From Lytechinus pictus (Eukaryota): DNA of 64,000 nucleotides. The position numbers and the translations under genes were made by a program. Positions 26,517-55,798 of this stretch are shown here, in pieces. Where the stretch lies: assembly GCF_037042905.1 (NCBI RefSeq), contig NC_087245.1, forward strand, positions 26,662,001 to 26,726,000, read 5' to 3'. The stretch's first letter is position 1, and the number at the start of each line of letters is the position of its first letter. The notes under the pieces are model-generated. The model saw nothing but the letters and a program-made list of their open reading frames with translations, was not told the DNA's origin and did not search any database.

Positions 26517-29500
26517 AACAACAAAATATCAGCTTAAAACATCTAGAAGAGAGAACAAAAAAAAAGAAAAAAGAAACAAATGACTTAATTTGATTACAGT
26601 AAATTGTTTACTATCAGGGACTACATGTACAGTACTTAAATTTCAAAGGGCTGTCATGACATCAAGCTGGTTTTAAAGAAATTAGTTTTTGACGAAAATC
26701 CATCATAATGTTGAAAGTTTTCAAAATCAAAGTTGTATTTCTTGTAATTTAGGAACATCAAATCCAAGTTGATACCCCATCATATCTATCATAACACAGA
26801 TTCTATAAATTGTCATTTTTAATGATTCATTATGAATTTTGTCATAGAATATTCAATTTGTACAACCATGCTGCCATGTTGTAGGCCTAGATACATGTAA
26901 ACATGCTTATCAAGTCAACCTCAATAAATTGAGTATTTGTACAAGTCAAATCAATCTTTTTTAGACAAGATTATAAATTTACCAATTTATTATGCAACTT
27001 AATTGGTATTATGAGAACAATTTTATCTTCATTTTATCTCTGTAAGACACACCTATTTTCAATCAATATCCAATGAGAAACACCCTTTTATAGCTCTCTG
27101 AGTCTCTCATCTCTTTCAACCAATGGAAATCCATTCCGCAAGGAGGTGTGGCAAAAGAGTGAGATTGCGTCAATTTATTGACGCAATTTGCGTCTTTACA
27201 GAGATTTTATTTTTTTACGACAATACTCTCATCTCTTTTTCGAAGTCTAGATCTATATCACATCTTTTCAAGCATCATTTCAAAGACAATATTTAAAGAA
27301 AAGTCTTATTCAAAGTAATTCCTGATCATGCTGATTGTACAGGAATAACGTTAAGGTGTTGTTATTCTCAATTAATATATCATTTTTCTTCATTTTCATG
27401 TCAACATTTGGAATTAATTACCTAAAAATATTGATGAAATCAACATCGCGGAGATAAAATAGCTCCTAGATTTTCTAGGCCTACCCTCTTAAATTCATTT
27501 CATTTTTTCATCAAAGCACTAACATGGGCGCAAGAACATCCGCGTTGCAATAGTAAAATACGCAATTGGTACCGGTAAGTCTACGCAGGCACTGCTCTGT
27601 CGCATATCATCTAAGTTACTTGTTAGTATAAAATTTAGTATTTAGTATTAAAATCGTCTGGATACGCAAACTGAAATTTTATCTCAGTCAGAGATTGTCA
27701 ATGTCAATGACAATGGCCAATGCCATCTCAGAATGACTCAGAATACTCAATACCAATTTCATTTTAAGAGATAAAATAAAATATTTTAAAGATAAAATGA
27801 CCTCAGAATACCGGTACCGCCCCTGATTTTTTTTTTCTTCAAACTTTAACTTAACTCCCCGTCAGTTAGTTCAAATTATTCTCCCCCCCCCCCCCTTAAA
27901 TTCCCAGTTCCCTCCCCAGCTTTCAACAATGTATACCCAGTTGTTGTGTGTCCGGACAGGTTGTGTGTCCGGACGATCAATTTTAGAAAGTCATTTGGAA
28001 AAATTTACAAGGGAAGTTTTATCAATTTTTAGTACAAAATGTCAGGAAATATTATAGAGAACAAAATAGTAGATGATTACAACTATTGATTTCGTATTTT
28101 TTAGTGTAATCCAAAGACAAAAAAAGAAGGCTTCAAAAATATAAAGTGTCCAGACACCCGACCCCCCATCCTACTAATGCCTAATGGCATGCCCACCATC
28201 GACGCCCGCCGCGATTAAGCGGCAGCGGAGCTCCTTGTCTCGACAAGCTGTGCTGTCGGCCCGCCGGCTCTCGGGGCTGAGGTGTTGTGACCGGCCGTAC
28301 TCCACTACCAACCAACCAGGTACGTAACTGACTAGTAGTAGTAGTTTAGTAAGAGGCTAAATAATGACAGTTAAGCAAATAACAATAGGGTAATAGAAAT
28401 AGTTTCCTAATCAACAAATGGGGATTATAAAGAACACACGTACCAGAATAAACTGCTTTTCTTTTCAGCTTAACCTTGGGCTTGGGCTTGGCCTTATTTT
28501 CGCCGAGAAACAGTCGACGTCGCAACTACGTACACATACGGTACCGGTACGTTGTTGTTGTTGTTGTTGTTGTCTTGTCGGGGGGGGGGGCCGGGGGCGA
28601 AATTATTTTTCCCACCGAGTTCTGGACCGACATATGAATATTCATGACTTGCGTCTTCGGATTGAGAGTACGCATGCGCATGCGCGTGGACTTGGCCTCG
28701 ACATTCACGTTGCTCAGAATGAATTAGCATCGTCAAATTACCGGTACCCTTACATAGTTACATAGGCCTTATAGGCTTAGATCTATATATACATCCAATT
28801 CTTAAACACTTATCAAACTAGCTGCCATTAATGGCAAGACATGTGCTAGGGTAGGGCTAGCTTAGGCTAGCGCATTAACTTTACCTCAAATCTGGACCTG
28901 TCTAATGCCTAATACTAATAGGAATAGCCGACTAATGCCATGGTTAATTTCGAACTTGTTAATTCCGAACTTTACGTTTGATTAGTTTTGGACCAATATT
29001 AGCTTGTTTACCATGGTTTAATATGTCTAGTCCGTATACAGAACCAGTCCTAGATCTAAAATAAATATCTTAGTTCTAGTCTAGTCTCTAGATCTAGACT
29101 CTGATCTACGCGCTATCAGCATGGAACCACTAGTGTACCAAAGGGGGGGGGGGGGGGCAGACTGCCCCCCTGACGAGTCACAACTGATCCAGGGGACGTG
29201 CCCCCCCCCCTTGAGAAGCCAAATTAATAATTTGTAATGTCAAAATGCAACGAAAAAAGACGTATGTCCCCTCTTTTGAACGTGAAAAAAATCTTTCTTT
29301 TTTTTCTTTTCAAATTTTTTTCAGCTACGAAATCCTTAATTTTGGGTGAAGACGGGGATCAAGATCACTGACGTTAATTTGTGCCTGACGTTAGAATACG
29401 TTCCATGCACGCACTGGTGTACCTAGGATTCTCCAAAAGGGGGGCAAATTTTTTAGAGGATATTTCGTCCGCGAAAAAATGTGACAAGCCCCCCCCCCAA

Positions 29501-29918
29501 AAAAAAGGGTATTCACCCCAAATTATGGATTTCTTAGCTAAAAAAAAAAGAAAAAGATCTTCACGTTCAAAAAAGGGGACATACGTCTTTTTCATTGCAT
29601 TTTTACATTCCAAATTATTAATTTGGCTTCTCAAAAGGAGCACGTCCCCTGAATCAGTTGTGACTCGTCAGAGGGACAGTCTTCCCCCCTCCCCCTTGGT
29701 ACACTAGTGGTTCCATGCTGATACAGCGTAGATCAGAGTCTAGATATAGAGACTATAGACTAGAACTAAGATTTAAAAAAATTAGATCTAGGACTGGTTT
29801 TGTACACGGACTAGACATATTAAACCATGGCAAATAAGCTGATATTTGTCTAAACCTAATTAAACGTGAAGTTCGGAATTAACCAGTTCGAAGTTAACCA
29901 TGGCATTAGTCGGCTATT

Positions 29919-32900
29919 CAGTGTTGTAGTCAAGGCTCAAACCTCCAAGGCCAAGGCTTTAATACCCAAGGTCAAGGCTTCAATACCAAAGGCCAAGGCC
30001 AAGGCATGGAAACCCAAGGCCGAGGCCTGAAAACCTCAAGGCCAAGGCATTTCAAACTTACAATATACAGAACAATGAACTAACAATACTTAGGCGGCAG
30101 ACATCACACATGGTAAAATGTATGTGAGCGAGGGGACTGAGCGAGAAAAAAATTAACCTTTGTACATTTAAAACAAAAATAATTTCATGATAGAGACATA
30201 TTAAAATAATGATATAGTTACCTGTGTACACATAATCCATAATTTTTCTATAGGCGATTTACATTGCAATAATTATTATTACCACGGTCATCTGATCCTG
30301 GCATTCTCAACGTATGTTTTTCTCCATGCACTCCCTGGGACAGGGGCAGCAGAAAATTATCATGGGGGGGGGGGGTCAACGCCAAAAAGGCACCCATTTA
30401 TCAAAATGAGTTTTTTTGTGCAAACAGATACATGTATTTTCAAAATGAGATTATGAACTGCGTGAAGTAATTGTGTGTTTTATAGAAATTAAGTTGAGCA
30501 AAGGCCTTCTAAAATGATTTTTAATTATAAGATAGATATTTTGCTTTAGGTTTTACTTCTCAGCGAGAAAGCATAGCGAGCAAGCGGTTTTGAAAAAAAA
30601 AATCAATTCTGATGTTGTAAAACTTGATTTATGGTCAATTATGGGGCTAATCATTGTTGAAATTTCCTTGCGCGATGTTGCCAGCGCGAATCACCAGCTC
30701 AAACTTCTTGACATGTCGTGTAATAAGACATGGAAATTATTTTATTCTGAGCTGGTTTTGTAATCATGAAAAAGATGTGTATCTAACTAAAAAATAACTT
30801 TGCGCTCGCTAATTCTTTTTATATACTGACCAGTAAAGGAAGCAGTTAATTAAGCAGTTAATTACTGCATTTTAAATAAGATACATAACTCACCAATAAT
30901 AAAAAATAATGCGAGCGCAAAGCGCGAGCTCAAAAATTTGTGATATTCCAACCTGAAAACTGGACATTCTGAGCATTTTTTTGTGAACGGGAAGAGAACG
31001 AGTACAATAATTGATGCGAGTGCAGGAAGCGAGCCAAATAGTTGTGATATTTCAACCATAAAGCAACATTCTATACATTTTTGTAACCATTAGCAGTACT
31101 GTACTAAACAATAATTGATGCAAGCACGATTCAAAATCTGCGATTTTCAAACCTTAAAATGTATTATGTTTTATTATTAAAGAAGGTATTTCTTTTTAAA
31201 AAAGGGCATATTTCATTTGGAAAAAAAAATCCTACAGGGATTTTTTTTTGGGGGGGGGGGGGGGGGGGCAAGAGAGCACAAAGCGCAAGCTAAAATTTTC
31301 AAATGCTTAAACTGAAAATGAGTCATTTTTAGGACTCTTGTCAGTTTTCACATTTTTTTCTGCTTACAACCACTTTTTTTAAACTTTTAATTAATCATTA
31401 ATTATTAATACTTATTGATAATATTAATAATTATTAATTATTAAATTATTTTTTGTTAATTATTATTTCTTGAAACCATATTGACACAAAAACAAATACG
31501 TTGTTTATTTCCTTGTAACTGTAGAGAAATGAGATTCAATGTTGAACGATATATGATTAAAAAGAAGTAAACATTTTTTCCCCTTTGTTTTGTCAATCTG
31601 ACCCAAAACAAATATAAAAATTTAGAAGAGAGATAGATAGAAGAAGAAGTCCCACCACCAAGAATAAACTAAGACAAGGGGGGGAAGGGAAAGGAAAAGA
31701 TGGAGTAAATGTGATATTATTTTTTGAACAATCTATTGCAAAATTAGCTTTTCTTATAGAAAGAGGGGGACAAATTTTGTTCACTCGCTCGCTTCAATCG
31801 CTTTCTTCTTCTTTTTTGACAGAAATTTTGCTCTATATATGCCATGCTTGGCCCCTCAAAGTTTCTGGCTCATCATGCCATTGACATAACCCATTTGGAT
31901 ATGACACAATTGGAGACTGTGTTCAAGTTTACCAAATCTTTTCAGAATATCATTAAGACTTAAAACATTCTTGTTGGCCAAAGAAAATAATACAAGGAAA
32001 ATCCTAATGGAATAGAAATCAACCTTGTTATCGTTCTTTAGAGTTAGCTATGTTTAAAGTATGAAAATTGTTGTCAAAATTGCAGTCAGATGTAAAAATT
32101 ATTCTTGTCATCAAAGCAATATTATCTTGATCATGACCATTATTATTTACTGTCATTATCATCATATGATTTCAACACATTACCAATACATAATGCTATT
32201 TTTCATAACTGATGTATTCTTTGTTTGAATTTCTTGATAATGGTGACAATTACAATTGATGACACTGCTAGTACACTTACTACTGCTGCTGCTACTGTTA
32301 CTGGTGATTGGTAGTATTGACCATTAGTGTTATTAAATATATATTAAAAAAACAATTGAAACATTTATAATTACTTATTAAAACAAATGAAAGTACAAAA
32401 TACAAAATGCCTTGAAAATGCCTTAAAAAAAAAAAAATTCAAGGCTCAAAATCCTCAAGGCCAAGGCCCTCTCGAGGCCAAGGCTTTGAAAAAGTAGCTA
32501 GGCATTAAAGGAGAATGAAACCCTTGAAACCAGCTGAATCCATATCAAAGAGAAAAATCAAAGGAACACATTGTTGAAAGTTTGAGGAAGATTGAATGAA
32601 TAATAAGAAAGTTATGAGCATTTGAATATTGAGATCACTAGTGCCATGTAGATCCTCCCATCGGCAATGCGACCAAGATCTGTGATATCACACACGTACA
32701 ACTCCCTCATTACTTTAGTACTTATTTCACTTATATTCTCACTTTTATAGAGTCTGTCACAAGGTGAGGTGTTCTCTTTATGAGATGACAAGTACAGAGG
32801 TTTCACAACATTATATCATTGATGAATCGTTTGTCATATGATTAGAATGAGCAAAAAGAAATGTTTTGGGGTATATTTTCAGTGTCCAAATGGGAGAGTT

Positions 32901-33125
32901 GTACGTGTGTGACATCACAGATCTTGGTCGCATTGCCAATGGGAGGATCTCCATAGCATTAGTGATCTCGACATTCAAATGCTCATAACTCTTTTATTGC
33001 TAGTCCTATTTTACTCAAACTTTTGTTGATCTTATTTTTTTATTTTTCTGCTTTCACAAAAGCTAACTTGCTCCAAGAGTTTCATTCTTAAGGCCAAGGC
33101 CGAGCATCAAGGCACTACAACACTG
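29919..33125. mobile_element. Non-autonomous DNA transposon inserted in the right arm of the inverted duplication
   Basis: Perfect 12-bp TIR CAGTGTTGTAGT / ACTACAACACTG, with subterminal CAAGGC repeats near both ends. No clean TSD. Confidence 0.8.
32509..33087. mobile_element. TTAA-flanked MITE nested in the 29919-33125 element
   Basis: TTAA|AGGAGAATGAAACCCTTG ... CAAGAGTTTCATTC|TTAA with long internal inverted repeats. It splits the CAAGGC subterminal array. Confidence 0.75.
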
Positions 33126-33131
33126 ATTAGT

Positions 33132-33380
33132 GTAGTAGGTTTCACGGTACACCATGTATCTTTCTTGGGCAGATGTTGGTCCTGAAAAGGACCACCCAAT
33201 CTCGACGTTTCGACAAGTGTGTTCTTGTCGTTTTCTCCTGAGGACGACAAGAACACACTTGTCGAAACGTCGATATTGGGTGGTCCTTTTCAGGACCAAC
33301 ATCTGCCCAAGAAAGATACATGGTGTACCGTGAAACCTACTACACTATTCTTCTTTGTCATGGAAACCTTCAGAAATTAT
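33132..33380 (+). mobile_element. Penelope-like (PLE) inverted pLTR fragment with 13-bp TSD
   Basis: Arms 33128-33231 and 33244-33347 are inverted copies with one mismatch seen. A 33-nt unpaired tail follows (33348-33380). Flanked by AACACTGATTAGT at 33119-33131 and 33381-33393. Carries a hammerhead motif. Confidence 0.75.
33234..33275 (+). ncRNA. Minimal type I hammerhead ribozyme motif 1
   Basis: TCTC-CTGAGGA-C-GACAAG-aacaca-CTTGTC-GAAA-CG-TC-GATA. Stem II is 6 bp, stem III is the palindrome ACGT, and the triplet is GTC. Stem I has one mismatch, and the mirror arm shows the pairing allele GAGA. Confidence 0.75.
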
Positions 33381-34700
33381 AACACTGATTAGTACTAGGC
33401 ATTAATTAGACAGGTCCAGATTTGAGGTAAAGTTAATGCGCTAGCCTAAGCTAGCCCTACCCTAGCACATGTCCATTAATGGCAGCTAGTTTATTAAGTG
33501 TTTAAGAATTGGATATATATATATATAGATCTAAGCCTATAAGACCTATGTAACTATGTAAGGGTACCGGTAATTTGACCATGCTAATTCATTCTGAGCA
33601 ACGTGAATGCTTACGATCGGCACTGGTCGAGGCCAAGTCCACGCGCATGCGTACTCTCAATCCGAAGACGCAAGTCATGAATATTCATATGTTGGTCCAG
33701 AACTCGGTGGGAAAAATAATTTCGCTGTCGGCGGGAGGGGGGGGGGTGCCTGGTGGCGAGTATCTGTATACCCACGTTACTGGGCCACTCTGAGTCTCTA
33801 TTCATGAATGACATTTAATATACCAATGCAAAAATAATGTAACATTACTTTTCAACCTAATATAACTTATTTTTCCCCTTATTTTCCCACCTATATATAA
33901 GCCTATATAGCCCTCTATATAGTTCGTTGTATGCCTTATGATGACCGCCGCTGACCGCTGCATGGGCCCTGGGGAAACTCTCTTTTTAAAATTAGGTCAT
34001 AGGATTCCTGCGTTTCAATTTGCGATAGATTTGATCCCCTTAGTTATACAATGGACCCTAGGGTCCATGGTTATATCTTTTTACTTATAAAGAGAATAAC
34101 ATAAAATTTTCTATGGTTTCATATATAAAGTTTAGATCATATACATACTACTTTACGTATGGATACATATCGATACACTCTGTATTCAGCGGCCCCAAAT
34201 TCCCTCTCCTCTTTATAGTTTGGCCGGATCATCATGTTTTATTTATAATTGTAAAAATGGAACCTATATCTCCCAAGAAAAAAAATTGATGAAAATAAAA
34301 TTGTGAAAATTTTAAACAAAAAACCTTTTATAACACATCTGCATTTAATTACCTCTCGTTAACAGTTAAAGGAAAATGTAACCTCTAGAACAGAACAACT
34401 TGTGTGAAAACAGAAAAAAAACAGATCAACGAAAGTTTGAGAAAAATTGAATGAATAACAAGAAATCTATGAGCATTTGAAGTTTAGGTCATATAGTTCC
34501 TCCTATTGGCGATGCGACAAAAATGTAAATGTGTGATGTCACATGTGAACAACTTTCCCATTGCTTTTGTATATATATATATTGTCATAACTTGACAAAG
34601 CCCTATGGGCGAAAATTCGTTAAAATATTACTGTCCACGGAGTTTTTATACTTTTCTTTGTTTGAACCTATTTATAATCTCCGAGCAGATCATTTGACTA

Positions 34701-35542: not shown

Positions 35543-35582
35543 GCTTTAGCTTTCGTCTTTTAATTGAGACTTCGTCAGAAGC
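35543..35582 (-). ncRNA. Minimal type I hammerhead ribozyme motif 3 (intact)
   Basis: Minus strand GCTT-CTGACGA-A-GTCT-caattaaa-AGAC-GAAA-GC-TA-AAGC. Full core, stem I GCTT/AAGC, stem II GTCT/AGAC, palindromic AGCT stem III and CTA triplet. Lies in a ~118-bp insert (35493-35610) between TA runs. Confidence 0.8.
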
Positions 35583-45469: not shown

Positions 45470-48400
45470 CAAATAGGGTGACGAGATCATTCCATTAAAA
45501 GACAACCATTGGGGTGACGAATGGTTTCATGAATGACAACAAACAATTATAATGCCAAAATTATTTCACGAAAAGACAACCATTAAAATGAATGAAGTAC
45601 ATTTATTTCCAACGATAAAAGAATTAAAACATTTTTGAGAACTTCAACAAAACAATGGAGGTAGGAAGTCAGAAAGCACAGCTTGTGATGAGTGCACCGT
45701 GACACATACAAAAAATACTTAAAACATGAAAAATATTACCTAAACATAGGACATTACAAAATAATTAAGGGGAAAACAAAGGGGGGACAAACAAAAACAG
45801 GGCAATTTTATATAAAATACTAGTATATCAATTGAAACAGTAAATAAATCGTCAAAACAATGACAAAATGACAGGCAACAACCACAAGGATGACGATATA
45901 ATTTCATTAAAAGACAAGCAATAGGGGGACGAGATTATTTTATTAAAATACAAACAGTTCGGTGACGAAGTGATTTCATTAAATATCAACCAATTGGGTG
46001 ACGAAATGATTTCATTATAATGATAACCAATAGGGTGAGGAAATGATTTCATTAAAAGACAACCAATAGAATGTCAAATGATTTCAATAAATAACAACCA
46101 ATAGGGTGACGAAATGATTTGATTAAAAGACAAACAATAGAATGTCAAATGATTTCATTAAATGACAACCAAAATGGTGACGAAATTATTTTAAGAATAA
46201 TCAACTACCAATAGAATGACGAAATGATAGGCAACAACCAGTAGTGTGACGATATAATTTCATTAAAAGACAACCAATAGGATGACAAGAGGATTTGATT
46301 AAAAAAAAACCATTAGGGTGACGAATTATTTCATTAAAAGTCAACCAATAGGTTGACGAAATGATTTGATTAAAATACAACCAATAGGGTGACGAAATGA
46401 TTTCATGAAAATGATAACAAATAGGGTGACGAAATGATTTCATTAAAAGACAAACAATAGCATGACGAAATGATTTCATTAGATAACAACCAATAGGGTG
46501 ACGAAATGATTTTATTATAATGATAACCAATAGGGTGACGAAATGGTTTGATTAAAAGTTAACCAATAGAATGTCACATAATTTCATTAAATGACAACCA
46601 AATTGGTGACGAAATTATTTTAAAAATAATTAACTACCGATAGGATGACGAAATGGTTTCATGAAAAACAACAAACAATTATGATGGCAAAATGATTTCA
46701 TGAAAAGACAACCATTAAAATGAAGACATGACAGGCAACAACCAATAGGGTGACGAAATTATTTGATAAAAAACAACCAATAGGGTGAGGAATTATTTCA
46801 TTAAAAAACAACCAATAGGCCAACGAAATTATTTGATTAATAGGCAACCAATAGGGTGACGAAATGATTACATGAAAATGAAAACCAATAGGGCGACAAA
46901 ATTATTTCATTAAAAGAAAAACAATAGTATGACGAAACGAGTTCATGAAAATGACAACCGATAGGGTGATGAAATGATTCCATGAAAAGACAACCATTGA
47001 AATGACGAAATGACAGGCAACAACCAATAGGGTGACGAATTATTTCATTAAAAGACAAACAATAGCATGACGAAATGATTTCATTAAATAACAACCAATA
47101 GGGTGACGAAATTATTTCATTAAAAGACAAACAATAGCATGATTTGGTTAAAATACAAACAATTCAGTGACGAATGATTTCATTATAAGACAACCATTAG
47201 GCTGGCGAAATCATTTGATTAAAAGACAACCAATAGGGCGACGAAATGATTTCATTAAAAGACAAACAATAGCATAACGAAACGATTTCATGAAAATAAC
47301 AACCGATAGGGTGACAAATTTTTTCATTAAAAGACAACCAATAGGCTGACGAAATGATTTCATTAAAATACAAACAATTCGGTGACGAAATGATTTGATT
47401 TGAAGAAAAGCAATAGGATAGGATGACGAAACGATTTCATGAAAATGACAACCAATAGGGTGATGAAATGATTCCATGAAAAGACAACCATTGAAATGAC
47501 GAAATGACAGGCAACAACCAATAGGGTGACGAATTATTTCATTAAAAGACAAACAATAGCATGACGAAATGATTTCATTAAATAACAACCAATAGGGTGA
47601 CGAAATTATTTCATTAAAAGACAAACAATAGCATGACGAAACGATTTCATTAAATAACAACCAATAGGGTGACGAAATAATTTCATGAAAATGACAGCCA
47701 ACCAATAGGGTGACGAATTATTTCATTGAAAGACAACCAATAGGTTGACAAAATGAATTCATGAAATGACAACCAATAGGGTGACGAAATTATTTCATTA
47801 AAATAAAAAAATAGTATGACGAAATGATTTCATTAAATAGCAACCAATAGGGTGACGAAATGATTTCATGAAAATGACAACCAATAGGGTGACGAAATTA
47901 TTTCATTAAAAGACAAACAATATCATGACGAAACGATTTCATTAAATAACAACCAATAGGGTGACGAAATTATTTCATTAAAAGACAAACAATAGCATGA
48001 CGAAACGATTTCATTAAATAACAACCAATAGGGTGACGAAATAATTTCATGAAAATGACAGCCAACCAATAGGGTGACGAATTATTTCATTGAAAGACAA
48101 CCAATAGGTTGACAAAATGAATTCATGAAATGACAACCAATAGGGTGACGAAATTATTTCATTAAAATAAAAAAATAGTATGACGAAATGATTTCATTAA
48201 ATAGCAACCAATAGGATGACGAAACGATTTCATTAAATAACAACCAATAGGGTGACGAAATTATTTCATTAAAAGACAAACAATAGCATGACGAAACAAT
48301 ATCATGAAAATGACAACCGATAGGGTGACAAAATGATTTGATTTAAAGACAACCGACAGGCTAAAGAAATGATTTCATTAACAGACAAACAATTCGCTGA

Positions 48401-49360
48401 CGAAATTATTTCATTAAATAACAACTAATAGGGTGACAAATGGTTTCATTATAACAATAACAACCAATAGGGTGACGAAAAGATTAAAAGACAACCAATA
48501 GAATGACGAAATGGTTTCATGAATGACAACAAACAGTGATGATGGCAAAGTGATTTCGTGAAAAGACAATGACGAAATGATAGGCAACAACTAATAATGT
48601 GACGATATAATTTCATTAAACGGCAATCAATAGGGTGGCGAAATGATTTGATCACAAAACAACCAATATAGTGACGAATTATTTCATTGAAAGACAACCA
48701 ATAAGTTGACGAAATTATTCCACAAAATATTCAACCACAAATAGGGTGACGAAATGGTTTCATAAAAGACAACAACCAATAGGGTAACGAAATTATTTCA
48801 TGAAAAAGACAACCAAAAGGTGACGAAATTATTTCATTAAAAGACAGCCAATAGGCTGACAAAATGATTTGATTTATAGACAACCAATAGGCTGACAAAA
48901 TGATTTGATTTAAAGACAACCAATAGGGCTAAAGAAATGATTTTATTAACAGGCAAACAGTTCGGTGACGAAATTATTTCATTAAATAACAACTAACAGG
49001 GTGACAAAATGATTTCATTTTAACAATAACCAATAGGGTGATGAAATGATTTGATTAAAAGACAACCAATAGGGTGACAACATTATTTGAATGAAAAAAA
49101 GACCAAAAGGGTGAGGAATTATATCATTGAAATACAGCCAAAAGGCTGACGAAATGATTTGATTAAATTCATGAAAATGACAACCAATATAGTGACGATA
49201 TAATTTCATTAAAAGACAACCAATAGGGTGACAAAATGAGATCATTTAAAGACAACTAATAGACTGACAAAGTGATTTCATTAATAGATAAACAATAGGG
49301 TGATGAAATGTTTTTATAAAAAAACATAGAGGGTGACAGAATTATTTCATTAAATTATAA
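45470..49360. repeat. ~36-bp satellite array
   Basis: Consensus approximately CAATAGGGTGACGAAATGATTTCATTAAAAGACAAC, repeated over ~3.5 kb. The core is 45880-49360, with degenerate edges. Confidence 0.95.
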
Positions 49361-50622
49361 CCAAAATTAGCCGTAAATAAAAATGTTAAGAAATTTATCT
49401 AAACATGTATCGTAATTTCTGTTATCATAGAAATGCCTTTGCCCAAATTCGAATAGTTTCCCAGCTTGTTATAAGGTCCACTCGAGATTTTCTATAGCGG
49501 CCATTTTGGAATTCAGCATGGCTGTCAATCCGATAAAAACAACCATTAGGGACATGTTTTTTTTTTTCAATATAAAGAATGGATGGAATTATGTTATGTT
49601 TCACCAGTTTTAATCATTTTAGATGCTTGTAACCAGGTGTGTATGTCACAATGTGTTGCATGATGATCCCCCACTTGAACTAAAAGTGTATTAAAATTTC
49701 GGACATCACAATCGAGTCATTTCACCATAATTTGAACATTCCACAATGGGCTAAAATGCAATACTTTATGGCGGTCATTTTAAGATTAAAATTGCGGATG
49801 ACGACATGGTCGGAAAATGGTACCAAATTTGTTTTTTGATTTAGCACCCCTGAATTGACAAAGTTAGCTAAAAATTGATTTTCGTACGATTATCTCATTT
49901 TATATTAGCCTCTGCTAACACATCAACTTCATTCAAACTCAGTTTATCTTCGATTTTACTATTGAGAATAAACGATTTTGCAACATTTCATTTTTAACAT
50001 CGCTGCCTATTTATCAGGACCTCACATGCCATAATTGTGAAGAGGAATAATCAAGCTTTTGAAAATTGAAATTATATCATGATGATGTCCACAGCAATAG
50101 GAAATTTATCCTGTAAAACGTGAGTTGCCTGTTTTTTTTTAAGGGTGTGCACAATATTTTGCCCCGTTCTGTCTAAAATTTGACTAAATTTTGATTTTAA
50201 GAAATTAATAAATAATAAGATGTTTCGCTGAGCGAAAGTTTGTTTTTGGAAATATATGATATTTTTCACCATGTAAAGCTTTAAATGCTATACTATGCAA
50301 AATAATTTGATATTCGAGATTGCAGATTGGAGATACCGTAGTAGGTACTAAAACTATTAGTACCTACGTGGCAATAGTAGGACGTGCAATTCACTTTCTC
50401 TGAAAAAATCAGGAAAATATCAGGAAAATTCTGTAAATTATACCAATACCGCGTTGTTAGTCTAAATTGTGCATTTGGAACATCGCTATATGGTCAAGTG
50501 ACAGGGTAAGCGAACATTTGTGGGCTTTTTAAGCACTTCACACTTACTTTATGTCGCAGGTCGCACCTATATACGCACCGTACTAACATTCAAATTTCCC
50601 GCCCTTTTACCAAAGGCCAATC

Positions 50623-52053
50623 ATGGCGACTGGGCCGGCGGCATCCGAGCCGGACCACACAATAACGAGTACGGATGAAGATAATATTTGGATGATACAA
50701 AGACCACGTCGAAAAAAAAGCACTTCGTACCAACCAGAAAAAAGAAAAAGAGAAAAGAGTGACGAGATTACAATTGAAAATATTAATCAAAATGCATCGT
50801 CAGACTCTGACTCGAATACATCATATCGTACTCCAGGTTTTACTTCGACCAAAAGATTGTCTGATTTCAAGCTATTTATAGCACCTATAGATAGACAGAA
50901 GAAATTGAATTTAAGGAATATTGATCCCTTAAAAGTTAAAAGAGCGATCAGAGACGTGAGTTCACAACCAGTAGAGTTTATCAAACCAATTAGCACTGGG
51001 TTGCTGGTAAAGTGTATCAACCTAAAGCAAATGAAATCCATCGCACAGATGCAAAACATTGGTAATATACCAGTAAAGGTCACGGAAAGTAGGTCGGGAA
51101 TTAAAGGAGTGATATATGGTGTCCCAACTGAAACATCAGAAGAGGATATTCTTGAAGAATTGAGGGACCAGAAAGTGACAGCAGTAAAAAGAATAGTAAA
51201 GAAATATCAGAGAAACAAAAATGACAAAGAAAGAGAAGATGTTGATATCAATCAGCCTACTTTTATTCCCTTGAGGAGTGTGATTCTTACTTTTAGTCGG
51301 GCAGATCTCCCTCAGAATGTCAATCTAGGCTACCAGATGTTTATAGTAAAACCATATATCCCTCCTGTATTCAGATGTTTTAAGTGTCAAAGGTATGGTC
51401 ACACTGCTGATATATGTAGATCTCAGATTAGATGTGTTAGATGTGGAGATCACCATAATTTTGATCAATGCCCAAAGAAATTGACACCAATATGTGCCAA
51501 TTGTGGAGGTGAACACTCCGCTGCATTTAAAGGATGCCAGCAGGCAAAAAAAGCAAAAGAAGTACAAGAAATAAAGATAATAAGAAAGCTAACATATGCT
51601 GAAGCATCCCAGGTCTGGAAAACACAAAGTGAAAAAAGGGTCACACAGACAGTCACTGAAGATGCTAAAGAATGTTCCCAATCAGTACCTAAGTTAAGAG
51701 AAAAAACCAACTTAACAGATGACCAGAGTAAAGTTACAAATACACAGGTAGAAACAGTTTCAAGTGAACTACCTATGGAGACTAACCTCCCTGTCGACAC
51801 CCAACAAAGGGATACGCCACTGTCTGCAGTTAAAGACCAGGCTACCAGGTCAGCCGGTACATCGGCAAAGAACACCACACCTAATTTCATAAGTCTAGCT
51901 AGTGATGAGCAAATTGTTGTTTTTATATGTCAATTGATTATGTCATTAACTGAAGGGAGAGAAGAAGAAGAAATAAATGCTTTAATTTTAACCGCTGCAA
52001 GAAGATTGCGGCAACAAAAAAAGGAAATCATAACTCAACAACGCAGGAACTAA
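50623..52053 (+). CDS. LINE ORF1, gag-like nucleic-acid-binding protein
   Basis: 476 aa with KGVIYGVP and three zinc knuckles: CFKCQRYGHTADIC, CVRCGDHHNFDQC and CANCGGEHSAAFKGC. Confidence 0.92.
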   Translation: MATGPAASEPDHTITSTDEDNIWMIQRPRRKKSTSYQPEKRKREKSDEITIENINQNASSDSDSNTSYRTPGFTSTKRLSDFKLFIAPIDRQKKLNLRNIDPLKVKRAIRDVSSQPVEFIKPISTGLLVKCINLKQMKSIAQMQNIGNIPVKVTESRSGIKGVIYGVPTETSEEDILEELRDQKVTAVKRIVKKYQRNKNDKEREDVDINQPTFIPLRSVILTFSRADLPQNVNLGYQMFIVKPYIPPVFRCFKCQRYGHTADICRSQIRCVRCGDHHNFDQCPKKLTPICANCGGEHSAAFKGCQQAKKAKEVQEIKIIRKLTYAEASQVWKTQSEKRVTQTVTEDAKECSQSVPKLREKTNLTDDQSKVTNTQVETVSSELPMETNLPVDTQQRDTPLSAVKDQATRSAGTSAKNTTPNFISLASDEQIVVFICQLIMSLTEGREEEEINALILTAARRLRQQKKEIITQQRRN

Positions 52054-55000
52054 CGCTTTCCTTGCCCTACTTTCCATTCTTCAATGGAATTCTCAGGGCT
52101 TACTAGGGCACGGACAAGAGCTACTTAATCATCTAAAAATAAATAAAGAATATGATTTAATTTGTGTTCAAGAAACGTGGTTTTATGATAATAGTTCACT
52201 TTGTATTCCAAATTATACATGCCTCCCAAGAAATAGGGAAGGTCAACGAAGAGGGGGTTGTGCAATATATATTCATGATAGGATTAAGTACGAAGATCCA
52301 ATCAATGATTCAAGTCTAGAATTACAACATGTGAACATATATGTCACCAATAAAAAAATATCTATCATCAACTTTTATAATCCATGCAAAAAATTAAACG
52401 AATCAATTCTAAACACATTGTTGAAGAATGTTAATGAAACAGATAACCTAATAATCTTAGGTGATTTCAACGCTCATAGTACCCTCTGGGGCAGTGACAA
52501 AACCGACAGAAATGGACAAGCCATTGAGCAATTTATATATGAGAATAACTTAATAGTATTGAATGATAAAACAGGAACTAGACTTGATCCTTGTACTGGA
52601 AAGCTTTCGTGCTTAGATCTATGTATGTCCTCCCCATCACTGGCCGGTAAGGCGATATGGAAGGTTATGGAAGATTCCTTTGGGAGCGATCATTTTCCAA
52701 TTATTATACAAATAACACTTGGAAAGAAAGGTAAAAATCATGAAAATCTAAGTAATCAGGCCAAAGATAACATGCCTCATGAACATATTTCTTTCAAGAA
52801 TGTTAACTGGCCCATATTTGCATACAAATGTGAAAATATCATAAAAAATGAAATAATTAAATCTGAAGATGGTATTAAGAACATTTTTTATTCATTTATG
52901 GAACGCTTGAAGGAATGTATTCATGAAGCAGTCCCGAAAAAAAGAAAGACGGGGAAAAATCCTGTCCCATGGTGGAACAAGGAATGTACTGAAAAGATTA
53001 AAGAAAGAAATAGAATAAGAAACCACCTATCAAGAAAAATCACACTTGATAGAATTAACGAATACAAAAAAAAGAAGGCAGAAGCCCAACGAGTTCTCCG
53101 GAAAGCGGAAAGAGAATATTGGCAAGCTTTTTGCAGAAGACTAGACAGATTCATGCCAGAGACAAAGATATGGTCATGTATAAAACGTTTAAATGGTGTA
53201 CCTGTCAAAAAATCACAAAATATGCCTATTTTGATTGAGAAAGGTAAAGCCATTACGTCCTTAACAGAGAGAGTAGAGATTTTTGGAACTTATTTCCAAT
53301 CCTTAGGACAAAAAAATAAAGATTCCAATAAAACATTAACCAAGGAAGTACAAAATTCTTTCTACCAAAATGAACATGTTATTAATGAACCTTTCTCGAT
53401 GAATGAATTTGAGAAAGCAGTTATATCTAGTAAATTTGCTGCTCCAGGAAAAGATAATATTCCATACATTGTATACGAAAATATGCCAAAAAGCACAAAA
53501 GAAATTATGTTGACCATTATTAATAGAATATGGGAATCCGGGGATATCCCGAGTTCTCTAAAACACTCAATTTTAGTACCAATCTTGAAATCTGGTAAGG
53601 ACTCAAAAAATGTTATCTCCTATAGACCAATATCACTTACATCTTGTTTTGCCAAAGTTATAGAGCGTATGATAAAAGACAGATTGCAATGGTACATGGA
53701 TAAAAATAACTTATTGCCTAATTTCATCAGTGGTTTTAGAAAAGGTCGTAGTACTACTGACAATATTGTTTTATTAGAAAATGACATTCAAAAATCTATC
53801 AATTGCAGTGAGCACACTCTTGCAGTATTTTTGGATGTCGAAAAGGCTTATGACAGTCTTTGGATTGATGGATTACTGTACAAACTCACTCAATGTGGTA
53901 TAGGAGGAAAAATGTTACATTTTTTAGAAAATTATCTAACAGAACGTACCTTTCAGGTAAGAGTTACAAATACTGAATCCAGAACATTTCAAATCCATAA
54001 CGGACTCCCCCAGGGGAGTGTTCTGAGTCCCCTTCTATATAATGTCATGATGAGAGATATTCCAATTGATCCTGAAGTGACATTATCCATATATGCTGAT
54101 GATTGTGCAGTATGGTTTTCTGGAAAAAATGTAGAGAATATTAGATTAAGGATACAAACTTATCTAGATGTATTATGTACCTGGTTTAAAGACTGGGGCT
54201 TCAATTTTTCTATTGAGAAGACTGTTCCGGTATTTTTTACTAAGCTTTCAAACGTTACCCCTCCAACAATCAAGTTTGAAGGGAGTATACTCACTTATAA
54301 AAATAATCACCGTTTCCTTGGAATGATATTTGATAGTAAATTGTCTTGGCATCCCCATATAGAGAACGTAGTTTCAAGAAGTAAAAGGAAATTAAATATA
54401 TTGCGAAGTTTAACAGGAACTAAATGGGGAAGTTCATCTAAGTCCTTACTTATGGTTTACAGGGCAATTATTAGATCAATTTTTGATTATGGTTGTCAAG
54501 CTTATGATAGTGCTCCAGTAACTACAAAAAAATTGTTAGACTCGGTGCAATATCAGGCACTCAGAATATGTGCTGGTGGGCTGCCATTAACATCGTTAGT
54601 TTCACTGCAGGTGGAAATGGGAGAACCCCCTTTAGATTTAAGAAGGCAAATGTTATCAAGCAAGTATAGACAAAATATAGAAAGACATAATAATCACCCA
54701 TTAATAACACGAATCAAACCATGCTGGCAGTTCGATTATCTTAAAGGTAAGAATGTTAGTAAACCGTTTGGTTACAGGCTCCAATCCAAGATAGGAAAAG
54801 AAATTAGTATCGAAAATATTATTTCTCCATCCTTTCCACCTTGGTTATTTTGTCCACCAGTTGTATCTACTGAATTGAGTTCACAAATCAAGAAATCGGA
54901 TCATCCAATACAATTACAACAATTGAGTTTGGAATTGATACATACAAAATGGTCACACCAACTCCATATATACACTGATGGATCCAAAGCCCCTGAAAAG

Positions 55001-55798
55001 GGGATTAGCTCAGCTGCTTTTTATGTACCTTATTTTTCCTGTTACCAAGGCAAAAGACTATCGAATTTCACGTCCTCCTATAGGGCTGAATTAATTGCGA
55101 TTGTTCTCGCACTGGAATGGATAGAATATTTAGATATATATACAGGTGTTGTTATTTTCAGTGATTCATTAAGTGCACTTTTATCTTTACAGAATCGGAA
55201 AGACGATCCTATCATTACAGAAATTCTAACTATTAGTACAAGACTCAAATATAAAGGTATAGAGGTATACCTGGAGTGGATCCCTGGTCACTGTGGAATA
55301 AAAGGAAATGAAATAGCAGACTCCTGCGCAAAAAAAGCTTTATCAAACAAAATAGAAATTCATAATCAAATAACATTATCAGAAATTATGCAACTTATTT
55401 CAAAAAGTTGTAAGATAATTTGGCAAGAAAGATGGAATAAAACTAACTCAGCACTGAAAGAATTGCAACCATCAGTGCTATCCACATATAAATGTAATCT
55501 AGGAAGACAGGAAACTGTACTCCATCGTCTCCGTTTTGGAGTCGCTGGTCTTAACCAAGATCTACTAAGATTAGGGATCCATCCAACAGGGTTTTGTGAT
55601 AGATGTCCTGAGGTAGAAACTGTCAGACATTATCTTTTACATTGTCCAAAATATATAATTGAAAGATCAATGCTCCTTGTAGAATTGAATGAATCACAGC
55701 CAGGACAAATAATGGAGTATTTAAAAAAAGATGACCCAGGGATACAGAAAGCATTTTTACGTTTCGTTTCAAGAACGAAACGTTTTAGTAAGGAGTGA
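52034..55798 (+). CDS. LINE ORF2: AP endonuclease, reverse transcriptase, RNase H, C-terminal zinc knuckle (start is the open-frame boundary, not an ATG)
   Basis: APE motifs ILQWNSQGL, CVQETW, GDFNAH and SDHFPI. RT motifs YRPISL, QGSVLSP and YADD. RNase H motifs YTDGSK, RAEL, SDSLSAL and WIPGHCGIKGNEIAD. C-terminal CDRC..ETVRHYLLHC. Confidence 0.95.
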   Translation, partial: LNNAGTNAFLALLSILQWNSQGLLGHGQELLNHLKINKEYDLICVQETWFYDNSSLCIPNYTCLPRNREGQRRGGCAIYIHDRIKYEDPINDSSLELQHVNIYVTNKKISIINFYNPCKKLNESILNTLLKNVNETDNLIILGDFNAHSTLWGSDKTDRNGQAIEQFIYENNLIVLNDKTGTRLDPCTGKLSCLDLCMSSPSLAGKAIWKVMEDSFGSDHFPIIIQITLGKKGKNHENLSNQAKDNMPHEHISFKNVNWPIFAYKCENIIKNEIIKSEDGIKNIFYSFMERLKECIHEAVPKKRKTGKNPVPWWNKECTEKIKERNRIRNHLSRKITLDRINEYKKKKAEAQRVLRKAEREYWQAFCRRLDRFMPETKIWSCIKRLNGVPVKKSQNMPILIEKGKAITSLTERVEIFGTYFQSLGQKNKDSNKTLTKEVQNSFYQNEHVINEPFSMNEFEKAVISSKFAAPGKDNIPYIVYENMPKSTKEIMLTIINRIWESGDIPSSLKHSILVPILKSGKDSKNVISYRPISLTSCFAKVIERMIKDRLQWYMDKNNLLPNFISGFRKGRSTTDNIVLLENDIQKSINCSEHTLAVFLDVEKAYDSLWIDGLLYKLTQCGIGGKMLHFLENYLTERTFQVRVTNTESRTFQIHNGLPQGSVLSPLLYNVMMRDIPIDPEVTLSIYADDCAVWFSGKNVENIRLRIQTYLDVLCTWFKDWGFNFSIEKTVPVFFTKLSNVTPPTIKFEGSILTYKNNHRFLGMIFDSKLSWHPHIENVVSRSKRKLNILRSLTGTKWGSSSKSLLMVYRAIIRSIFDYGCQAYDSAPVTTKKLLDSVQYQALRICAGGLPLTSLVSLQVEMGEPPLDLRRQMLSSKYRQNIERHNNHPLITRIKPCWQFDYLKGKNVSKPFGYRLQSKIGKEISIENIISPSFPPWLFCPPVVSTELSSQIKKSDHPIQLQQLSLELIHTKWSHQLHIYTDGSKAPEKGISSAAFYVPYFSCYQGKRLSNFTSSYRAELIAIVLALEWIEYLDIYTGVVIFSDSLSALLSLQNRKDDPIITEILTISTRLKYKGIEVYLEWIPGHCGIKGNEIADSCAKKALSNKIEIHNQITLSEIMQLISKSCKIIWQERWNKTNSALKELQPSVLSTYKCNLGRQETVLHRLRFGVAGLNQDLLRLGIHPTGFCDRCPEVETVRHYLLHCPKYIIERSMLLVELNESQPGQIMEYLKKDDPGIQKAFLRFVSRTKRFSKE

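Follow-up and report, generated by a model that had tools for sequence, protein, structure and literature searches.

Insertions of Penelope-like elements (PLEs) typically carry an inverted, 5'-truncated copy of the element and a tail of 30–40 bp, according to the available parts of two papers (PMC8557442, PMC3846280), and the rotifer cases in the second have target-site duplications (TSDs) of 8–10 bp. For an anole PLE protein, the accessible text of PMC11167929 reports that both target strands are cut and extended, with a preference for ATT, and that reverse transcription starts at two internal sites bracketing the tail, whose length is the distance between them, on a template left uncut by the hammerhead. 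Head-to-head junctions have also been attributed, preferably, to self-priming (PMC3846280, same excerpt). The minimal hammerhead ribozymes (min-HHRs) of metazoan PLEs need a dimer and cleave poorly, and a lone motif gave no cleavage (PMC4209133, in excerpt). For histone 3' ends, partial texts state that the four residues preceding the stem are indispensable to SLBP binding (PMC1635294), that processing cuts 4–5 nt after the stem (bioRxiv 10.64898/2026.10.14.759114) and that the U7 snRNP processing route is exclusive to histone mRNAs (PMC5054213).

Here we describe a 249-bp palindromic insert in a 64-kb window (the whole stretch of DNA analysed). We read it, with a probability of about 0.64, as a dead-on-arrival, head-to-head PLE stub that probably arose through reverse transcription of element RNA primed from both of the cut target strands. 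It would then be a clean record, in a genome, of priming from both strands at the two start sites known in vitro.

Structure and setting of the insertion

The hairpin is a real, recent insertion. The 13-mer AACACTGATTAGT stands on either side of it, as the left TSD at 33119–33131 and the right TSD at 33381–33393 (both read on the + strand), and occurs exactly twice in the window. Behind the left copy, the mirror arm (33128–33231, minus strand) is an inverted, 5'-truncated copy of the PLE terminal repeat (pLTR), which runs from the family's upstream 3' end (the equivalent of 33347) to A9 of the hammerhead and includes neither tail nor CTGA. An unpaired 12-nt centre follows (33232–33243), in which 33233–33243 are the 5' end of the forward copy and 33232 fits neither copy (it is A in family contigs). 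The forward arm (33244–33347, + strand), assigned to the 3' part of the pLTR by arm comparison and family contigs, is succeeded by a 33-nt tail (33348–33380, + strand) present in the forward copy only. The arms are 104 bp long with a single mismatch, 33201 C vs 33274 T (103/104), a count that includes TAGT, the last four letters of the left TSD; these are complementary to 33344–33347 and leave 100 bp inside the TSD. TAGT is a microhomology between target and element. The predicted foldback has a stability of −212.1 kcal/mol (z −28.9), equalled by none of 200 shuffles.

An earlier note on this DNA had described a foldback with a 12-nt centre, a 33-nt tail and a 13-bp duplication, and all of these are present at those sizes. 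Its placing of most of the hammerhead core in the centre is borne out by CTGAGG (6/7 core letters within 33232–33243), as is its remark that the mirror arm stops at the core, since that arm runs back only to A9. It had also called the insertion very young. The perfect TSD and the 103/104 arm identity agree with this, but the forward copy departs from the family majority letters at 33274, 33302, 33303, 33356 and 33358, two of the five being common to both arms, and differs at 2/93 letters from a public contig that shares its right junction; because of those five sites we prefer to call it recent.

The insert is a stub without an ORF. The ATG at 33360, in the tail, may be the start codon of the parent element, and its context, GCCATGG when the family majority letters are used (window 33356–33363), suggests a parent ORF starting inside the tail. 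For a 49-codon open frame across the forward copy no longer homologue was found; phmmer returned four matches, all low-complexity repeat proteins without an RT or GIY-YIG family, and we rejected the frame as a chance one. Exact-pattern scans for the element gave 0 matches in metagenomes, prokaryotic genomes and viral contigs.

The insertion sits in a nest of older repeats. Letters 1–7 of the left TSD are the final seven of the 12-bp terminal repeat of a neighbouring 3.2-kb DNA element (29919–33125), which confirms the earlier reading that the hairpin arrived after that transposon. The CAGTG-ended element, in which AAGGCC motifs recur, is bounded by terminal inverted repeats of 12 bp, CAGTGTTGTAGT, and we take it to be hAT-like; no 8-bp TSD was found for it, and its site, compared with the paralogous arm of the host foldback, shows either three missing letters or a 3-bp ATT duplication. 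The host is an older foldback element (28597–33725) with arms at 28597–29353 and at 29509–29919 plus 33388–33725, 84–88% alike. Its right arm was split by the 3.2-kb element, and then by the hairpin insertion across the end of that element. One public run, X2, carries the same junction of the 3.2-kb element with its host, and the composite may be multicopy. The window is animal DNA and also contains exons of a kinase-domain gene and of an ankyrin-SOCS gene and a LINE-type ORF; the ankyrin-SOCS gene is on the minus strand, and the stub is located upstream of it, ~6.6 kb from the first coding exon that was found. Elsewhere in the window, an apparently intact two-ORF LINE with endonuclease, RT and RNase H spans 50587–55798, and short tandem units form a 3.5-kb array at 45850–49365.

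The repeat family and the origin of the stub

A run search with 23 words returned 20 matching runs from 8 studies with three organism labels (3 rows unlabelled), each with 0.30–0.43 of the words, all as contigs and none recorded as RNA. Four of the 20 (X1, X2, X9 and X11) were compared over 33205–34380, an interval that takes in the apex, the forward copy, the right flank and only 27 letters of the mirror arm. There were 2171 records in X9 and 3293 in X11, with summed depth highest over the arm. Among the matches listed, the loose ends form two clusters. The upstream one comprises 31, 30 and 22 contigs behind 33347, 33348 and 33349 in X9 and 35 + 26 at 33347/48 in X11; that at the tail end comprises 32 contigs at 33379 in X9 and 34 and 37 behind 33375 and 33379 in X11. 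The flanks past both clusters are AT-rich and agree with one another at only 0.40–0.46. At the other side, loose ends before 33233 terminate in identical letters in all four runs, and X2 record 17 holds 205 nt of this upstream repeat; since the letters are shared in every run, the repeat continues upstream of the apex. The family is dispersed, its copies end on the 3' side at either of two sites ~30 nt apart, and the upstream part of the repeat is missing in the window copy. Uniform MITE-like copies, the outcome that the earlier note had set against its own reading, are not what these runs contain: the copies run past the apex, end in two clusters and have unlike flanks.

An empty site, which the same note had proposed to look for, is present in X2. 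One contig has 129 loose letters before 33381, the last 30 being window 33089–33118, and by depth arithmetic it covers at least 33381–33404, that is, it continues past the TSD and holds a single 13-mer. This contig may represent a paralogue of the host composite and not an allele, because no run covers the unique flank 33765–34380, which has almost no cover in the four runs apart from two short repeat patches. The filled right junction is also found in X2, where record 19 spans 33318–33410 with two letters different and bridges tail, TSD and flank. The piece common to the filled and empty forms has a depth of 12.8, vs 13.3 + about 11.4 expected as the sum.

Several features of endonuclease-positive (EN+) PLEs are present together: a hammerhead in the terminal repeat, an inverted 5'-truncated copy adjoining the 5' end, a 33-nt tail with two 3' end sites, and a TSD at an AT-rich site that is single in the empty form. 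The two-start-site signature is that of a PLE and not of a fixed-end MITE. Membership rests on these terminal features, because no RT or GIY-YIG ORF is tied to the repeat; taking both histories of the apex discussed below together, a PLE origin is very probable. The earlier label of a minimal PLE insertion holds for the inverted truncated repeat with its tail, the TSD and the non-uniform copies, while the autonomous parent that it implies was not found.

In the course of events that we favour, a presumed endonuclease would first have nicked an AT-rich target, with the cuts on opposite strands separated by 13 nt; the TSD and the empty site are the observed traces of this step. Reverse transcription from the bottom-strand end would then have started at the tail end, which is the downstream start site, and covered ~148 nt, stopping a little upstream of the hammerhead core. 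The top-strand end finishes in 4 nt complementary to the RNA at the upstream start site, 33 nt before the other; helped by this match, it would have primed there and been extended by ~100 nt to A9. Both end clusters are present in the family, and the priming from two strands is extrapolated from the anole work in vitro. The two short cDNAs would finally have been joined head to head with one unmatched base. Both would have stopped at the structured hammerhead region; the order of priming given here is the one that we presume. The template itself was RNA that the hammerhead had left uncut, as the copy extends across the cut site. Self-priming is a possible alternative route to the head-to-head junction.

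Another history of the apex, unlikely on balance yet to be taken seriously, has the PLE insertion longer at first, either with a longer forward pLTR or as a longer head-to-head pair, its centre being deleted later and its arms partly homogenised. The X2 results fit a longer original insert equally well. Record 19, which holds tail, TSD and flank (depth 13.3), overlaps record 17 (12.4) by 30 letters, and record 17 extends upstream of the apex; over 33233–33263 X2 has one contig among the matches listed, which runs on 205 nt into the upstream pLTR, and the apex is absent from the X2 contigs among those matches. X2 also has the family letters at 33302 and 33303, where both window arms share different ones. 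Against this, record 17 may belong to another copy, and letters common to both arms would likewise arise if a single variant RNA served as template for the two. The exact apex of the window was not found among the listed pieces of the four runs, but perfect hairpins are easily lost from short-read contigs, and a similar apex beside the core occurs in another organism's run (X9 record 25). This nearest apex is a hint, with nine other letters, four gaps and just 27 letters in the mirror arm. The unseen apex, together with a left junction seen in no listed piece of the four runs (27 mirror-arm letters being covered), could also be taken as a sign of an artefact, with the mirror arm created in assembly or by a long read folding back. 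We regard this as very improbable, because an artefact would copy the mutated letter and run into the flank, whereas the mirror arm retains the family letter where the forward arm has mutated, stops where the family's 3' ends cluster, includes neither tail nor flank, and is followed by a true TSD.

The long near-perfect arms, the TSD and the setting among MITE-like DNA elements would equally suit a palindromic non-autonomous element of fixed structure, MITE-like or retrozyme-like, that moves as a whole. This reading has little left to commend it and is already largely refuted by the upstream continuation, as family contigs pass the apex in 4/4 runs. Fixed terminal inverted repeats and uniform length, as in a MITE, are at odds with the asymmetric tail, with that continuation and with ends clustering at two sites 30 nt apart, and the mean summed depth over 33205–33244 is about 1/9 of that in the next bin (X9, X11). 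The insert likewise lacks the head-to-tail tandem with at least two complete hammerheads that marks a retrozyme, there being no tandem array here. The earlier note had suggested that the hairpin could yield endo-siRNAs, and it might finally be supposed that the locus is kept for a hairpin RNA giving rise to such siRNAs against the family. The predicted hairpin is very stable, and transgenic flies contained siRNAs corresponding to the inverted regions of rearranged Penelope copies (PMC3681739, in the part available), which makes the idea a reasonable one. Such a role seems highly improbable for a stub that lacks the upstream part of the pLTR, has an empty form and lies within nested repeats at that distance upstream of the ankyrin-SOCS exon; any siRNA output would need read-through.

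Hammerhead and histone-type signal in the terminal repeat

A minimal type I hammerhead lies at 33234–33275 on the + strand. Helix I pairs 33234–33237 with 33272–33275 and is broken at 33274; CTGAGGA (33238–33244) is followed by an extra C at 33245. The remaining parts are a G-C-closed helix II of 6 bp (33246–33251/33258–33263), GAAA (33264–33267) and a palindromic ACGT without helix III, and the predicted cut falls after C 33271. CTGANGA occurs within the insert on the + strand only. The motif has the min-HHR traits of a CUGANGA...GAAA core, an extra base after A9, a G10.1-C11.1 pair and a palindromic 15.2–16.2; the 4–5-bp helix I of min-HHRs is present in the family and absent in the window copy. 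In the forward copy 3/4 inner pairs of helix I form, vs 4/4 with the letter of the mirror arm and the family. It is the arm mismatch at 33274 that breaks the third pair, and the pairing letter is kept in the mirror arm and in nearly all of the family depth. The outer half of helix I is missing compared with family contigs, in which the letters before 33233 give, by hand, four further pairs past a U-U mismatch. A min-HHR descriptor (helix I at least 3/4) found two sites in the window, one being this motif, and none in 300 dinucleotide shuffles; a looser core pattern by itself is not significant (0.76 expected). Rfam hammerhead models gave no match to the window at E up to 10.

The window copy is predicted to be inactive. 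The earlier note had seen a complete ribozyme on the + strand; the catalytic core and helix II are indeed there, but the outer helix I is cut off, the inner helix I is broken and a dimer partner is lacking. Its suggestion that the hairpin would compete with ribozyme folding agrees with the energies: the hammerhead fold, when imposed, is about 53 kcal/mol less favourable than the foldback, and within the forward copy alone the cost is 12 kcal/mol; this competition would hardly matter, because the ribozyme is already broken and partnerless.

Two other hammerhead-like sites were noted in the window, both on the minus strand. A second, unrelated minimal hammerhead at 35582–35542 has an intact 4-bp helix I and lies in a ~120-nt insert inside a TA tract; it is probably a stub of another PLE family. 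A stretch at about 34860–34828, near another TA tract, pairs GGCC with GGCC in helix II and has a change at the first base of its core; it is perhaps a decayed third family. Among the matches listed, loose ends also occur before 33276, beside the predicted cut site, in 6 contigs of X1 and 23 of X11. These contigs might be copies of self-cleaved RNA, although the consensus fits a CpG-decayed core equally well.

In each arm, a histone-type 3'-end hairpin, which the earlier note does not mention, directly follows the hammerhead. The look-alike signal spans 33282–33316 on the + strand, with a 6-bp stem and TTTC loop (33282–33297), AACA, a 6-nt spacer and CAAGAAAGA at 33308–33316, 10 nt past the stem; its mirror copy lies at 33159–33193 on the minus strand. 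CAAGAAAGA is presumably the sea-urchin U7 site; a literature search for this element retrieved no text. The pair of stem-loop and CAAGAAAGA appeared in 0/300 window shuffles. The Rfam Histone3 model matches in each arm at 16.6 bits (E 0.093), below its gathering score of 34. Across the window no Rfam model reached its gathering score, and at E up to 10 the only others were microRNA hairpin models, which we dismissed as generic foldback matches far below their cut-off.

The same pattern of hairpin and CAAGAAAGA had 17 matches at 16 loci in metagenomes and 0 in viral contigs. Fifteen of the 17 follow an ORF that we take, from its sequence, to be H3 or H4, at 28–45 nt from the stop where measured; of the other two, one lies behind a non-histone ORF and the second has too little DNA upstream to tell what precedes it. 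At 11 of 13 further hairpin sites in these loci the exact CAAGAAAGA stands at 9–11 nt, the exceptions being one variant and one reverse-strand reading. Several of the histone loci are near-identical and hence not independent. They give 17 Rfam matches above the cut-off of 34, and the window falls below it. At one locus (L014) there are two small cysteine-rich ORFs, similar to each other and not of histone type; a histone-type hairpin with CAAGAAAGA stands behind one of them, and apparently related sequence behind the other.

The window signal therefore has the 6-bp stem, the 4-nt loop, G-C as pair 2, U3 in the loop and the purine-rich CAAGAAAGA at the distance found in histone genes, and it lacks an A-rich 5' flank and a score at the Rfam gathering level. 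The flank is GGGT, vs AAAC in 21/30 hairpin sites, and the stem letters GGTCCT occur in 0/30. These flank letters, GGGT, also serve as the 3' strand of hammerhead helix I. Because this flank deviates, we leave the function of the signal in doubt. No variant of at least 4% falls in the hairpin among the variants listed, CpG-free stretches being generally quiet, and a single one lies inside CAAGAAAGA (33310; ~9% of depth in X1, <1% in X9 and X11). Some family copies, seen as joints 33309>33276 in X9 and 33316>33281 in X9 and X11, repeat only the 34–36-nt stretch with the histone-type hairpin. Hairpin and CAAGAAAGA are features of the family that the stub has inherited, and most likely they derive from a captured histone-gene end.

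A speculative and rather unlikely extension is that the family has hijacked the histone 3'-end pathway. Hairpin and CAAGAAAGA would recruit SLBP and the U7 snRNP, the resulting message would lack polyadenylation and follow the timing of histone mRNA (S phase, early embryo), the cut would remove both start sites, and the hammerhead 10 nt upstream would act as an off-switch. The predicted position of a histone-type cut does lie upstream of both priming sites. If so, processed RNA would make protein and read-through RNA would be inserted, the hammerhead could strip the hairpin off, and a retrotransposon would be a client of a pathway thought to be histone-only. Processing by U7 would couple retrotransposition with the cell cycle and with early development, and would assign the PLE hammerhead a regulatory role open to testing; if the RNA is unprocessed, the signal would still testify that a PLE terminal repeat has captured the end of a histone gene. 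Our literature search, which did not extend to most subscription papers or to Repbase and Dfam entries, found no description of a PLE with a histone-type end, and the hammerhead-adjacent signal apparently makes the family an undescribed variant, as far as its sequence goes.

Comparison with described elements

The foldback itself is a known kind of PLE insertion, ordinary PLE debris. The head-to-head inverted copy, the tail in one copy and the TSD are shared with Pen2a_Av of Adineta vaga (PMC3846280), with the insertions of PMC8557442 and with PAc (PMC11167929), in the parts of these papers available. The endonuclease-positive PLE insertions in the same excerpts also have an AT-rich target with ATT, two 3' end clusters ~30 nt apart and a hammerhead in the repeat. 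The window stub differs from them in having no ORF and no full pLTR and in that both copies end at or just before the hammerhead core, and its TSD is 13 bp, vs 8–10 bp in the rotifer cases excerpted from PMC3846280. Animal non-LTR retrozymes, in the available text of Li, Clavereau and Pollet (bioRxiv 10.64898/2026.07.22.740005), are likewise short, non-coding type I hammerhead repeats related to PLE pLTRs, but they form head-to-tail tandems with at least two complete hammerheads, whereas the window has a head-to-head pair with one damaged core.

Metazoan PLE min-HHRs, as excerpted from Cervera and De la Pena 2014 (PMC4209133), share with the window motif the type I core, the extra base between 9 and 10.1, the G10.1-C11.1 pair, a long helix II, a short helix I and a palindromic 15.2–16.2 without helix III. 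The window copy differs from them in its 6-bp helix II, its truncated and mismatched helix I, the absence of a second sense core and its burial in a 104-bp hairpin. The family alignments in the supplement of that paper could include the repeat family of the window. The replication-dependent histone 3' signal (RF00032 with the downstream element read by the U7 snRNP) is matched in the 6-bp stem, the 4-nt loop, the G-C pair 2, the loop U3 and the spacing of CAAGAAAGA. The window departs from it in having AACA for ACCA or ACAA, the GGGT flank, the GGTCCT stem and a score of 16.6 bits, and its signal follows no histone ORF but adjoins a hammerhead in a mobile repeat.
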